Below, in pieces: positions 1-12,238 of a stretch of 47,397 nt of DNA. Made by a program: the position numbers and the translations under genes. Origin of the DNA: an uncultured Rickettsiales bacterium (GTDB taxonomy: Bacteria; Pseudomonadota; Alphaproteobacteria; Rickettsiales; SXRF01); assembly GCA_964620765.1 (NCBI GenBank), contig CAZUKF010000001.1, positions 1 through 47,397 on the forward strand, written 5' to 3'. The notes beneath the pieces are model-generated. The model had not been told where the DNA came from. It searched no databases and saw only the letters and a program-made list of their open reading frames with translations. The stretch's first letter is position 1, and each line of letters starts with the position of its first letter.

Positions 1-335
1 AATACCATGCCGCCAAGTAAAAGCAGAGCTTCATCGAGGGCCGCATCAAGGAGCTGGAAGACAAGGTCTCCCGCGCCGACGTGATTGATATCTCCAAAGT
101 GGCGGGCGACACCGTGAAGTTTGGCGCCACCGTGAAGCTGGTGGATGAAGACACCGATGAAGAAGCCACCTACCAGCTGGTGAGCGAATACGAGGCGGAT
201 TTAAAAGCCGGGCAGATCTCGGTTACCGCCCCCATCGCCCGCGCGCTCATCGGCCGCAAGAAGGGCGACTCGGTGGAAGTGCACACGCCCAAGGGCCAGA
301 AGGCGTACGAGATCCTGGAAGTGCAGTACAAGTGA
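1..335 (+). pseudogene. greA: Transcription elongation factor GreA, 3' portion (5' end lies outside the window); the reading frame is interrupted by TAA at 18-20
   Basis: Frame 3 reads [59 protein letters not shown]...[21 protein letters not shown]...EVQYK. This matches the end of the GreA coiled coil and its C-terminal globular domain. TGA at 333-335. The TAA at 18-20 sits where GreA proteins carry a conserved Glu (AEYHAA[KR]E). Confidence 0.75.
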
Positions 336-432
336 ACTGACTAGTCAGGGTCCCGGCGGGTTTTTGAGGTTTTTTCTTTTTTTTCAATGCAGTGAGCTTT
401 TGGCTCCGCGGTTTTTTAGCGGGTTTTAAAGC

Positions 433-469
433 GGGATAAGCGCCAAAAAGAACGCTTATCCCACTTTTT
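433..469. terminator. Hairpin plus T-tract between convergent greA and the candidate immunity gene (putative intrinsic terminator)
   Basis: GGGATAAGCG (433-442) pairs with CGCTTATCCC (453-462) across a 10-nt loop, followed by ACTTTTTC. The stem overlaps the stop codon (456-458) of the minus-strand ORF. Confidence 0.5.
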
Positions 470-914
470 CTGCTGGGACTAAAAAGGTGAACCCTCCTGA
501 TGAAATTTCTTTTAGGCGCACAATAGAACCTGGAGGGAATTTCCAGTGTTGCTCCACAGGATTATAATGAGGCGTTGGTAACACCCTGTATGTCCCATCT
601 CCTAAGCTAAGAGCATGAGTGGCACGCAGCCAAAACGCATCGCCTTCCTCTTGTTCGACATCGATCCGTATCACATCAGGATTCGGATGAATCGCCAACA
701 TCACCTTGGTTCCATCAGGAGTAGACTTTTCTTTTAGCCTTACGCTCTCTCCCGGCAAAAATGCCCAAACCTCATCTTCAGGATTATAATTAGACGTTGG
801 CAATAGCTTGTATAGTCCGTCGCCCATCTCCTGCGCTTGAGTTGGCCGACAAGCTGTTGATCCTTCGTCGAGCAGTTCAACGTATACCGTTATGGTCTTT
901 TGATCGTTCTGCAT
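456..914 (-). CDS. Hypothetical protein with an internal tandem duplication; candidate immunity protein for the adjacent MuF toxin
   Basis: ATG 912-914, TAA 456-458. Starts 9 nt after the toxin stop and has the same low GC as the toxin tail. Two ~70-aa repeats: GDGLYKLLPTSNYNPEDEVWAFLPGESVRLKE and GDGTYRVLPTPHYNPVEQHWKFPPGSIVRLKE. No family recognised; the immunity role is inferred from position only. Confidence 0.55.
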   Translation of the reverse strand: MQNDQKTITVYVELLDEGSTACRPTQAQEMGDGLYKLLPTSNYNPEDEVWAFLPGESVRLKEKSTPDGTKVMLAIHPNPDVIRIDVEQEEGDAFWLRATHALSLGDGTYRVLPTPHYNPVEQHWKFPPGSIVRLKEISSGGFTFLVPAEKVG

Positions 915-923
915 AATAAATAC

Positions 924-1964
924 TTATAATTGATTCGGTTGAAAACCATCGTCGCCAATTTGGATTATTTCTCTAGTCTTATTATCTCGTACCACAAACT
1001 TTCCGTCTTTTTCATAACGAGTAGCGCCATTGTTAGGATTCACTTTATTAGGCGCTGGGTATTCCTTTCCGTTTTTAATTGTATCGGTGATTTTCCTTTC
1101 ACCCCATCCACGTTTTTCCATTTGGTTTTGCCATTTCGCATCGGATTTGTGTTCACCCAACTTCCATTCAGTATCGGTGCGACCACCCAGAGGAGGCTCT
1201 TTACCGCCCTCCGGCTTCGGCGTTTGTTCCGGCTTGGGAGTAGATGGTTCATCTTCCGGCGGTAATTCTACCCCGTCCAATTGCCCCAGAATCGTTCGCG
1301 CAACCGCACGGCCCACGCCTGTAGCAAGACCGGCCAGCAACGTCTCCAGCACATAAACCGGTTCAATCGGCGGATCGGCAGGCTCCCCCGCCCCTTCCAG
1401 TACCGGCTCGGCAGAGCAGCGACAGTTGGGGTGCACACCGCCCGGCGCGCCGCCCTCGCCCCAGCTCTGGACCTCGCCGTCCATCGCCGCGCAATCTCCA
1501 CACGCGTCAGCACTGGCGCGCCACGCATAGTTGCGGATGCCGAAGGCAGGCTGGCGTATTGAATCCAGCTCCTGCTTTACCGCCAGCCGGTGCTGCACCT
1601 CCTCCAGCGCCAGGCGGGCCTGCAGCTGCGGCAGCAGCGGCCTGCTGAAATTGAAGCCATCCGTTTCCTCATATTCGTCTTCTGCGCCTTCCTCTTCCGC
1701 TTCATCTTCAAGGGGATCAAAGAGCCGCTCCAGCTTTTGCAGATACTCCAGGCTTGCGCGCGCCAGCACGCCGGGCAGGTAGGGCTCCTCCAGTGTAATT
1801 TCATCCACGCCCAGCTTCTCGCGCATCTGCCACGCGAAAGCGCGCCAGTGCTCCCCGGCGGCTTCCTCCGTGACGTGCCCCGCTTGCTGCATCGCCACTT
1901 CAATGGCGGAAAAAAGCGGCGGCAGCTCACCTACAGCGATGGTTTTTTGCGCAAATCTATTCAT
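924..1964 (-). CDS. Phage MuF (Mu gpF / SPP1 gp7) domain protein fused to a Pro-rich linker and a small C-terminal toxin-like domain (MuF-type polymorphic toxin)
   Basis: Start taken at ATG 1962-1964 (MNRFAQK), not at the 2348 ORF limit. Aa 145-183 read NYAWRASADACGDCAAMDGEVQSWGEGGAPGGVHPNCRC, the MuF signature W..C..C..DG...HPNCRC. Linker PPEDEPSTPKPEQTPKPEGGKEPP. An 88-aa Lys/Asn-rich tail lies in low-GC DNA. Confidence 0.7.
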   Translation of the reverse strand: MNRFAQKTIAVGELPPLFSAIEVAMQQAGHVTEEAAGEHWRAFAWQMREKLGVDEITLEEPYLPGVLARASLEYLQKLERLFDPLEDEAEEEGAEDEYEETDGFNFSRPLLPQLQARLALEEVQHRLAVKQELDSIRQPAFGIRNYAWRASADACGDCAAMDGEVQSWGEGGAPGGVHPNCRCSAEPVLEGAGEPADPPIEPVYVLETLLAGLATGVGRAVARTILGQLDGVELPPEDEPSTPKPEQTPKPEGGKEPPLGGRTDTEWKLGEHKSDAKWQNQMEKRGWGERKITDTIKNGKEYPAPNKVNPNNGATRYEKDGKFVVRDNKTREIIQIGDDGFQPNQL

Positions 1965-2580
1965 GCCGCGCCTTCCGCATAGCCTTCTCCTGCCGTGCCT
2001 CGGTGCCGAAGGTGGGCAGGCAGGGCCGCAGGCTGCAAAGAACCGTATGGGCGGCTTTGGAAAGCGCGGGAGGCGAGCCGCGACGCAGGTACGCGGCAAA
2101 AGCCTTGCGCTCTTCTTCCGCGCGCGCAAGCAGGAATACCACCGCACCCGGCAGTTCGTCCAGTGCTCCCGGCGCATGCAGGCGGGCGGAATCTTGCGGC
2201 AGCAGCAATTCGCCCTCCCTAAAGCCCTGCGCAACGCGCGCCGCCAGCCCCTCTTCCCCGGTTTCTTCCGCCGCGTAGGCGCTGGCCTTCCTGCCGTTGA
2301 ACAGGTTGGCGGCGGCGCGGGCGATATCCAACCCCTCGAAAAGATCAAGCAGCTGGCGCGCCGAGGAAAACGGCGTGGCGGGCAGTGCGTCGCCGAACTC
2401 CTGCGCCGCCAGCGGCGCTATCATTGCGGCGATGAAACTCTCCGCGCCCGCAGTCGGCGCGTAGCGAGCTGTACTTTCAAACAATTCACGCAGCACCCGT
2501 TCATCGGCACCGGCCCGCCGCACGGCGCGGCCATGGCCCATGATGAGATGATGGCCCGTAAAGGCATACCAGTAGCGCAT
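1957..2580 (-). CDS. Hypothetical protein, apparently translationally coupled to the MuF-domain gene
   Basis: ATG 2578-2580, TAG 1957-1959. An 8-nt overlap (ATGAATAG) with the MuF gene start. GGGGG Shine-Dalgarno-like run upstream. Ala/Arg-rich 207 aa with no motif recognised. Confidence 0.5.
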   Translation of the reverse strand: MRYWYAFTGHHLIMGHGRAVRRAGADERVLRELFESTARYAPTAGAESFIAAMIAPLAAQEFGDALPATPFSSARQLLDLFEGLDIARAAANLFNGRKASAYAAEETGEEGLAARVAQGFREGELLLPQDSARLHAPGALDELPGAVVFLLARAEEERKAFAAYLRRGSPPALSKAAHTVLCSLRPCLPTFGTEARQEKAMRKARHE

Positions 2581-2636
2581 GTTTCCCCCTGCCTGTTACT
2601 GGAACACAGGGGCAGTGCGGCCGGAAGGGGAAGATT

Positions 2637-11450: not shown

Positions 11451-12238
11451 GCTTTCTCCAGCTGGATAGTCATCAGCGTGCACAAGCCCGGCAACAGGCG
11501 CCAGGTTGCTTTTTCCAGCGCCATGTAAGGCACGGCGAGCACGGCGGGCACCAGGCTACGATACGTCATGCCGCCCGTGATGTAATAGGCGAGCAGGGTG
11601 TGGCAGCGCTTTTCACGCAGCACGAGATGCGGGAACTGCGCCTCGTACTGGCTGCGGTCGCGCACGAAAATCGTCCACGGCAGCGCACAGTTGGCGTTTT
11701 TCATGCGCCCTTCTCCACTATTCTTCCAGCCCTGCGCCCGGGTATCATAAAACTCGTAAGGATGCAGCAGCCGCGTAAGCCACCGCCCAACCGGCGATGC
11801 GGTAGGTTCTATCATCACTACCCGGCCGCCCGGCGCAAGGCACCGCTCTGCTTCGCGCAGGAATTTTGCCGGTTCATGCATGTGGTGCATAGCACCTGTG
11901 AGCAGGAAGAGCCGCACGGAAGCATCCTCGAACGGCATATTCTCCGCGTTAACCGCGAGCGAAGCATTGGGGGTAGCAACACAATCTGTTTTCATTACAC
12001 CGGGGATGTATTCTTCCAGGAAACTCGCGCCGCAACCCAGTTCTATAATCGGCAGGCCGGCCAGGTGGGACGTAGGTTCCAGCCCCCGCATCAGCTCGGC
12101 GTACCAGTGCTCGTACACCAGCCGCATAAGCTTTTTCTCCTGCAGGATCCGCCGGTGCACCGTGATGGCGCCAGCCTCATTCACGTCCAGTTCTTGCGCG
12201 AGGGGATGATAGGCTATTTTTTTTAGCAAACCCTTCAT
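11447..12238 (-). CDS. Class I SAM-dependent methyltransferase
   Basis: Motif I IIELGCGASFLEEY and PGGRVVMIEP. ATG 12236-12238. An A8 tract lies at codons 5-8. Confidence 0.8.
   Translation of the reverse strand: MKGLLKKIAYHPLAQELDVNEAGAITVHRRILQEKKLMRLVYEHWYAELMRGLEPTSHLAGLPIIELGCGASFLEEYIPGVMKTDCVATPNASLAVNAENMPFEDASVRLFLLTGAMHHMHEPAKFLREAERCLAPGGRVVMIEPTASPVGRWLTRLLHPYEFYDTRAQGWKNSGEGRMKNANCALPWTIFVRDRSQYEAQFPHLVLREKRCHTLLAYYITGGMTYRSLVPAVLAVPYMALEKATWRLLPGLCTLMTIQLEKA

Follow-up and report, generated by a model that had tools for sequence, protein, structure and literature searches.

A MuF-domain toxin module with a colicin E5-type ribonuclease tail and an unclassified immunity protein in an uncultured Rickettsiales bacterium

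Three genes on the minus strand

The stretch analyzed here, 47,397 nucleotides (nt) of contig CAZUKF010000001.1 from an uncultured Rickettsiales bacterium and hereafter called the window, carries a three-gene polymorphic toxin module in the order UP207, toxin gene, immunity gene, with all of the module genes on the minus strand. The toxin combines a divergent MuF-like domain with a C-terminal tail that belongs to the Colicin E5 ribonuclease family. This arrangement is part of the explanation of the locus that we favor. The features, with amino acids given as aa, are as follows.

1957 to 2580, minus strand: UP207, 207 aa, a conserved partner gene whose stop overlaps the toxin start by 8 nt
924 to 1964, minus strand: toxin gene, 346 aa, with MuF-like domain, junction and linker, and Colicin E5-type RNase; stop codon at 924-926
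1389 to 1907, minus strand: MuF (phage head morphogenesis / SPP1 gp7) homology region, aa 20-192, from hhalign, BFVD fold and PHROG
1191 to 1388, minus strand: junction, aa 193-258, with conserved motif, short helix and linker; recombination joint for tail cassettes
927 to 1190, minus strand: domain of the Colicin E5 type, a predicted tRNA anticodon nuclease, aa 259-346, from PF12106, PDB chains and fold
456 to 914, minus strand: putative immunity gene, 152 aa, a tandem duplication with halves at 681-914 and 459-680; stop codon at 456-458
428 to 467, minus strand: 17-bp stem-loop overlapping the immunity stop codon, from RNA folding; candidate terminator of the module
456 to 1200, strand not applicable: low-GC tract, comprising the tail and immunity cassette, GC 0.444 as compared with a window mean of 0.593
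2581 to 2636, minus strand: 56-nt spacer from the stop of the ABC-2 permease (wzm-like) gene to the UP207 start

The original prediction for this DNA had placed the open reading frame (ORF) 924-1964, its motif at aa 145-183, the linker and the 88-aa tail correctly. The gaps it gave are also exact, with ORF 456-914 starting 9 nt past the toxin stop and the module lying 56 nt from the wzm-like permease. It was silent on ORF 1957-2580 and on the internal duplication of ORF 456-914. A 474-aa, TTG-started form of the toxin ORF was dismissed as an ORF-calling artefact, because homologues do not support it and it reads across the upstream gene in a different frame.

The base composition breaks at the linker, as had been claimed. 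The GC content of the tract 456-1200 is 0.444, whereas same-length stretches across the window average 0.593 (standard deviation 0.028), which places the tract about 5 standard deviations lower and near the window's GC minimum (0.438, for the stretch starting at 426). GC at third codon positions is 0.72 over aa 1-200 of the toxin and declines to 0.35 over the tail and 0.42 over ORF 456-914. The hand counts of G+C on which the claim was based, 46/60 at 1441-1500 and 22/60 at 931-990, were reproduced exactly.

At the 3′ end of the module, the stem-loop at 428-467 folds with -26.3 kcal/mol (z = -5.3), a value equalled by 0 of 200 shuffles, and the folding makes it a likely terminator of the module. 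It was missed by a consensus terminator scan because it has no U-tract. In the spacer at 2581-2636, the consensus scan, which is uninformative for the minus strand, returned no promoter- or terminator-like site on that strand. Transcription may read through from the polysaccharide export genes into the module.

Toxin domains, immunity gene and exchangeable cassettes

The 88-aa tail had been described as belonging to no named toxin family, and this description has to be abandoned. The tail matches Pfam Colicin_E5 (PF12106) with 49.3 bits (E 6e-13) and the whole toxin protein does so with 46.5 bits (E 4e-12), the cut-off being 25 bits. In a phmmer search the C-terminal RNase domain of colicin E5 (chains 2a8k, 2dfx and 3ao9) is also matched directly, at E 8e-7 (about 1e-6). 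An AlphaFold2 (AF2) model of the toxin was built on 11 family sequences, and its tail region has a predicted local distance difference test score (pLDDT) of 81-93. In a Foldseek search against the PDB, the 7 best matches are colicin E5 without exception (probability 0.98-1.00, target-normalised TM-score 0.47-0.61), and a CdiA-CT toxin (NC101, 5i4q) comes next.

The residues K277, Q281, R285 and K307 of the tail align with K25, Q29, R33 and K60 of colicin E5. In the colicin, killing is lost in the R33Q and K25Q/K60Q mutants, and the scissile phosphate is contacted by Q29 (Yajima 2006, PMC1669751). Within the family of the window toxin, R285 never varies, and conservation of K277 and Q281 is at least 90%. 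The equivalence of K307 with K60 is less certain because K307 lies beside a variable loop. The tail is clearly a member of the Colicin E5 ribonuclease family, and the earlier impression of a BECR-type RNase flavor was sound, since colicin E5 is a BECR-fold enzyme (PMC3482391). By homology, the tail would act as a metal-independent tRNA anticodon nuclease that cuts the anticodon loop and halts translation. The targets of colicin E5 in E. coli are the Tyr, His, Asn and Asp tRNAs, whose anticodons contain Q/G34-U35, and queuosine is the wobble base of the anticodons cut. In one related locus (L003, 7640-11250) a MuF-ColE5 module lies directly 3′ of queA and tgt, genes of the queuosine pathway, possibly by coincidence.

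At aa 20-192 the toxin has a genuine, if divergent, MuF domain. The motif NYAWRASADACGDCAAMDGEVQSWGEGGAPGGVHPNCRC is found at toxin aa 145-183 (nt 1416-1532), with a CxxC...HPNCRC motif at aa 155-183 inside the MuF region. When the family alignment A1 was compared by hhalign with 17 canonical MuF proteins, the match reached 99.9% (E 1.7e-31) over aa 20-192. These references are about 300 aa long and all match Phage_Mu_F at E of 0.001 or below; one of them scores 71.9 bits, the cut-off being 29.6. Phage_Mu_F (PF04233) is also matched by 45 of 55 family representatives with E no worse than 0.001. Of 13 PHROG families matched, 12 are in the head and packaging category (best, PHROG 324, E 4e-7), and the BFVD fold matches of the toxin model are minor capsid or head morphogenesis proteins over approximately 185-250 columns. 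When aa 1-200 were used in a full HMMER scan against 1.84 billion representatives, 140 matches came up, 47 of them below 1e-10. In the viral contigs scanned for the toxin family, the generic MuF core was the only part found (aa ~132-190), in true phage proteins.

Downstream of the toxin, ORF 456-914 consists of a domain of about 75 aa in tandem duplication, the halves being 44% identical over 59 aa (E 1e-16). A homologue is situated 3′ of the ColE5 tail at every locus in which this tail was detected (L001, L002, L003, L010, L014, L026, L028 and L033), and a 79-aa ORF occupies the immunity position in L035. The homologues (n = 40, chiefly the two-domain form of about 150 aa) have either a single domain (~76-85 aa) or two (~150 aa). 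The linkage holds on unrelated toxin N-termini, as in L026 and in L014, a metagenome-assembled genome (MAG) of Bacteroidetes. Because of this strict linkage to ColE5 tails, even where the toxin N-terminus differs, the product of ORF 456-914 is assigned as the putative cognate immunity protein. Its expected role would be to bind the nuclease and keep it inactive in the producing cell and in kin cells.

A divergent ImmE5 was considered for this protein and rejected. The single sequence matched no PDB chain at E up to 10, and a 27-sequence profile did not match the ImmE5 chains (2dfx, 2fhz); the profile's only PDB matches were spurious, repeat-summed ones to designed Kelch proteins. No Pfam family scored over its cut-off, the only match being a sub-threshold one to HARP. 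The repeat motif G.GLYKLLPT..YDPEDE.W.F.PG of the immunity profile A3 is what draws the Kelch propeller and HARP matches, and it hints at a small beta-rich module.

Upstream of the toxin, the UP207 stop and the toxin start overlap by 8 nt in ATGAATAG, and an AGGGGG Shine-Dalgarno-like motif is just 5′ of the UP207 ATG. Homologues with 28-54% identity are directly 5′ of MuF-family toxins at no fewer than 13 loci (L001, L002, L006-L009, L011, L012, L015, L031, L033, L034 and L035), and the overlap between homologue and toxin start is 4-19 nt in the three loci compared (L001, L002, L031). The family has many invariant positions, among them an N-terminal MRYWY motif. By gene order and conservation, UP207 is a partner of the toxin that is translationally coupled to it. 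Its homologues are few: a word-indexed search of 5.8 billion proteins gave only 5 besides the window copy, a metagenome scan added a single further locus on a 4.8-kb contig, and the viral contigs scanned contained none. UP207 has no match in Pfam, NCBIfam, PHROG, PADLOC or the PDB, profile search included. The possibility that it represents the ~100 N-terminal residues of a canonical MuF protein, split off as a separate gene, was discarded at an hhalign probability of 0.4%. Together with the toxin and the immunity gene, it makes up a toxin-immunity module that is genuine and probably functional.

The joint between the two parts of the toxin is itself conserved. The junction at aa 193-258 is made up of a DPPIEPVY.LETL motif, a short hydrophobic/Gly-rich helix and a low-confidence linker rich in Pro, Glu and Lys (aa 235-258, nt 1191-1262), and pLDDT in the toxin model is below 50 at aa 231-251. 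In alignment A1 the junction is conserved and the tails diverge past it. Nine relatives (P0002-P0010) have a Colicin_E5 tail, 7 of the 9 with a recorded Phage_Mu_F match, and P0011 combines an N-terminus as in the window toxin with a different tail. What the relatives have in common is the UP207 homologue and the MuF domain up to the junction or linker; the other tails are Colicin_D, DUF4258 and many with no Pfam match. The architecture of a MuF polymorphic toxin proposed earlier, namely a MuF domain, a linker, a swappable toxin domain and an adjacent immunity gene, was thus found in full, together with the alternative tail cassettes joined at the same linker that had been envisaged in relatives.

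Orphan cassettes starting at the junction are present in L002, L007, L011, L015 and L033, and orphan immunity genes in some relative loci; the window has a single cassette and no orphans. For instance, at 11900-14700 of L002, a 5′-truncated MuF copy with another tail, its own immunity gene and more tail fragments are found 3′ of the primary ColE5 cassette, an arrangement of classic orphan cassettes.

Base composition and nucleotide identity bear on how these cassettes move. In five other loci the ColE5-immunity cassette has a GC of 0.37-0.44 in the tail and 0.32-0.44 in the immunity gene, with an overall locus GC of 0.38-0.54, and the cassette is lower in GC than the adjoining toxin N-terminal domain in every MuF-bearing locus among the five. 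Aligned with L033, the window shows a nucleotide identity of 0.38-0.66 in UP207 and the MuF domain and of 0.64-0.81 in the tail and immunity gene, where 6 of 7 blocks of 90 nt have at least 0.70. The break in GC and the jump in nucleotide identity at the linker show that cassettes are exchanged: the tail and immunity gene are a mobile cassette of low GC, recombined at the junction or linker onto a resident N-terminal part.

Genomic setting and delivery of the toxin

Upstream of the module on the coding strand, genes for an ABC-2 permease and an ABC ATPase come first, then those for a GHMP kinase and an epimerase, and after these the genes of methyl- and glycosyltransferases; the other flank is a convergent greA. 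Pfam was run on ten neighboring genes, which have transport, sugar or methyl-transfer functions or no match, and genes past 14.6 kb were judged by eye. The greA-like frame at the contig edge (window 3-335, plus strand) has an in-frame TAA at 18-20, with only the C-terminal GreA/GreB domain in an unbroken ORF; the gene may be a pseudogene, or the contig end may be misassembled.

The toxin family is rare. The word-indexed search of 5.8 billion proteins gave 10 relatives, and 10 of the 13 matches in species-representative genomes are MAGs labelled Rickettsiales, Alphaproteobacteria or Caulobacteraceae; in these genomes, full-length toxin relatives occur only in those MAGs and in one Pseudomonadota MAG. 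The settings of related loci are listed below.

L001: flanked by pheST and ribosomal protein genes
L002: flanked by bamA and lpx genes
L003: flanked by queA-tgt, gyrA and mfd
L006: flanked by glycosyltransferase and mgsA genes
L007 and L013: flanked by acyl-CoA dehydrogenase and asmA genes
L010: flanked by mutS
L011: flanked by cheB
L028: flanked by pseudouridine synthase and recQ genes
L015, L031/L032 and L035: DUF5131 / mobile-island setting

A DUF5131 (phage Gp37/Gp68-like) gene, at 9151-9909 of L031, 8204-8842 of L032 and 4164-4924 of L035, is directly 5′ of the UP207 homologues there, and one is nearby in L015 (4481-5383); genes for 2OG-Fe(II) oxygenase and LexA-like proteins are often in the vicinity. 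A Caulobacteraceae MAG (L017, 9800-13790) has three tandem MuF-core genes with another short N-terminus and unassigned C-terminal domains. Lying between phosphomannomutase-like and UDP-glucose dehydrogenase-like genes, they represent another non-prophage array of MuF toxins.

Two loci connect the cassette with gene transfer agents (GTAs). In L033, whose tail and immunity protein are 73% and 78% identical to those of the window, the module of UP207 homologue, toxin and immunity gene starts 3 nt past a 1225-aa GTA_TIM / Phage-tail_3 / Rcc01698_C protein, a hallmark of RcGTA g15, and DUF2460 (g12-like) and BR0599 (g13-like) genes are 5′ of this g15-like gene. L026, from a Hyphomicrobiales MAG, has the same ColE5-immunity cassette within a toxin array directly 5′ of genes for a Peptidase_S78 protease, a capsid protein, connectors and g12-g15-like proteins. 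The cassette has thus been placed within RcGTA-type clusters twice independently, in L026 as the cassette only and before g4/g5-like genes. Nearly all toxin relatives are from MAGs labelled Alphaproteobacteria or Rickettsiales, and Alphaproteobacteria are the class in which RcGTA-type agents occur. The module had been called an orphan. No phage genes were found in the window, but the term has to be qualified in view of L033, a close relative inside a cluster of RcGTA-like tail genes.

Both loci have further features. In L033 (2300-16350) the module is wedged between the g15-like gene and two DUF2793 proteins, with an orphan fragment of junction plus tail at 11504-12007. The array in L026 (1-4700) has three or four toxin genes with a common N-terminus, MYLDDVTTRRLMEACLAMEIELRLTRLEMLAAKAGFDPNQPRIPAGQPGGGQW (about 60 aa and unlike that of the window), and interspersed immunity genes; of its C-termini, one is unknown, one is Phage_lysozyme and one Colicin_E5. 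This array may be a second capsid-linked toxin family that is as yet undescribed.

MuF domains in phages are portal-associated, ejected head proteins (PMC5512222, PMC3482391). As in phages, the MuF domain would anchor the toxin at the portal inside a capsid, for ejection with the DNA. The toxin would be loaded into capsids encoded elsewhere in the genome, perhaps with the help of UP207; an RcGTA-type GTA or a prophage resident in the genome would be the most plausible source of the capsids. Injection of the toxin into neighbors would follow, with inhibition of cells having no immunity gene. Loading in trans is the most economical delivery model because of the two RcGTA placements and the portal-associated, ejected role of MuF domains. 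As a whole, the explanation of the locus as a MuF/ColE5 tRNase and immunity module that is capsid- or GTA-loaded in trans appears to us moderately probable. A narrower proposal is that UP207-MuF modules are trans-encoded cargo of RcGTA-type agents or related domesticated capsids in Alphaproteobacteria, with the MuF-like domain docking the tRNase at the portal. This proposal is doubtful. If it were true, GTA particles would double as kin-discriminating weapons, whereby recipients with matching immunity gain DNA and others are poisoned.

A number of observations weigh against capsid loading. The window lacks portal, terminase and capsid genes, and the GTA structural proteins of L026 and L033 have no tblastn match anywhere in its 47 kb. 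This result and the non-phage Pfam matches of the ten neighbors agree with the original prediction that prophage genes are not nearby. The same L026 and L033 proteins have no match within 10 kb in the other relative loci. Of about 14 family loci with usable context, 1 adjoins GTA genes, 9 (plus the window) are amid housekeeping genes and 3 are of the DUF5131 / mobile-island type. The RcGTA gene set is not known to include a MuF protein, nor is its portal known to belong to the type that MuF usually accompanies. The AF2 model of UP207, built on 6 sequences, has a pLDDT of 40.5 and no recognisable fold. The toxin alone is under the cut-offs of both Pfam Phage_Mu_F (PF04233; 19.4 vs 29.6 bits) and TIGR01641 (24.7 vs 39.65 bits), and these matches cover only the C-terminal half of each profile. 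Judged by the refuting condition that the original prediction had set, the lack of a significant Phage_Mu_F match at aa 100-200, the Pfam outcome is formally borderline. The MuF assignment nevertheless stands despite the sub-cut-off score, because profile-profile and fold comparisons agree; the domain first proposed is in this way upheld by hhalign and the BFVD fold, and not by the Pfam score. In the literature searched, no paper linking toxin cargo or MuF toxins to GTAs was found.

Alternatively, the locus could be a stranded relic of prophage packaging that is now a selfish chromosomal toxin-antitoxin (addiction) pair, with a toxin that is never exported and a penalty on loss of the locus. 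The window and most related loci have no phage genes, the toxin-immunity pair is tightly linked and mobile, and a few percent of muf genes are outside recognisable prophages (Jamet et al., PMC5576092), all of which suit such a relic. However, an intact MuF domain and a coupled partner gene kept across many lineages and chromosomal sites are unexpected for it, and the swapped tails, orphan cassettes and orphan immunity genes are a signature of exported competition toxins and do not mark addiction modules. We regard the relic as unlikely.

Export could also proceed without a capsid, through type I/IV secretion or vesicles, with UP207 as a chaperone or adaptor and the MuF-like fold re-purposed as a carrier. 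Such a role would agree with the resemblance of a small coupled partner gene to the adaptor and chaperone genes of other effector systems, with the hydrophobic helix preceding the toxin domain and with the lack of capsid genes nearby. Nevertheless, the loci examined show no consistent linkage to a secretion-system gene, the toxin has no signal peptide or known trafficking domain in Pfam, and the only recurrent structural neighbors are of GTA type, which makes this route improbable.

Anti-phage abortive infection is highly improbable. It would require the MuF-like part to serve as a decoy that senses the portal or procapsid of an invader and frees the tRNase from the immunity protein, so that translation is shut down. 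Phage MuF domains do bind portals (PMC5512222), tRNA cleavage is common as an immune effector (PMC12409363), and some relatives are in islands with restriction-modification, HipA and PIF1-WYL genes. Yet no PADLOC defence model was matched, most loci are outside defence islands, and diverse swapped tails, each with its own immunity gene, suit inter-bacterial polymorphic toxins better. Hardly tenable is the original prediction of an unnamed toxin family in a pair that is new as a whole, which holds for the immunity half, left without family assignment, and fails for the toxin half, where the tail is above the Colicin_E5 cut-off, aligns to colicin E5 crystal chains and has the same fold and catalytic residues.

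The toxin domain is already known, the immunity family and UP207 are uncharacterised, and the non-prophage alphaproteobacterial setting is new for MuF toxins. MuF toxins have hitherto been presented as phage-only, and the window locus belongs to a small alphaproteobacterial clade that has moved out of the prophage and in which the MuF domain is intact. The clade has also acquired a dedicated partner gene and exchanges toxin-immunity cassettes, such as a ColE5-type tRNase with a new immunity family. This raises the testable question of which particle loads these toxins, and two related loci point to GTAs. If the toxins prove to be GTA cargo, these agents would gain a role in bacterial antagonism and kin recognition, and a sequence-specific tRNase would gain a new inhibitor fold. 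If that is not borne out, the locus adds modestly to the polymorphic toxin diversity already described.

Comparison with known systems

The module is closest in plan to the MuF polymorphic toxins (Jamet et al. 2017, PMC5576092; Zhang et al. 2012, 'MuF phage-capsid-like', PMC3482391), which share with it a MuF domain at the N-terminus, a C-terminal toxin that varies and, just 3′ of the toxin gene, a small immunity ORF. As in those of temperate phages, tails are swapped among relatives, and MuF-BECR RNase fusions are known in phages (PMC5512222). The published MuF toxins, however, are near-exclusively prophage genes (96% in prophages or remnants, PMC5576092), placed beside portal and terminase genes and enriched in Firmicutes, whereas the window module is between a polysaccharide exporter and greA, and most relatives of its toxin are amid housekeeping genes in Alphaproteobacteria. 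The MuF part of the window toxin also differs in having no counterpart of the first ~100 residues of canonical MuF proteins and in having the extra gene UP207 in front. The table of Zhang et al. (PMC3482391) gives the ColE5 domain no MuF association or alphaproteobacterial occurrence.

Compared with the colicin E5 RNase domain and ImmE5 (PDB 2DFX, 2DJH, 2A8K, 2FHZ), the window tail belongs to the same Pfam family and fold, with about 33-37% identity in fold alignments, and it has aligned counterparts of the basic residues K25, R33 and K60 and of Q29. It is about 10 residues shorter, in two loops, and has Phe in place of Y81 and Gly in place of S95. The colicin scaffold for translocation and receptor binding is lacking for delivery of the window toxin, and the partner also differs, since the window immunity protein, with its duplicated domain of about 75 aa, is unrelated in sequence to ImmE5.

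Variable toxin-immunity cassettes with a foreign base composition behind a conserved junction recall the orphan-cassette toxin loci of the CdiA, Rhs and MafB types, and relatives of the module share with these loci the shortened orphan cassettes and orphan immunity genes downstream. The trafficking domain differs, and the window itself has no such orphans. With RcGTA-type clusters, the likeness is in the L033 module directly after a g15-like gene and the ColE5-immunity cassette before g4/g5-like genes in L026; the window, unlike them, has no GTA gene, and the link to these clusters is made through two loci.

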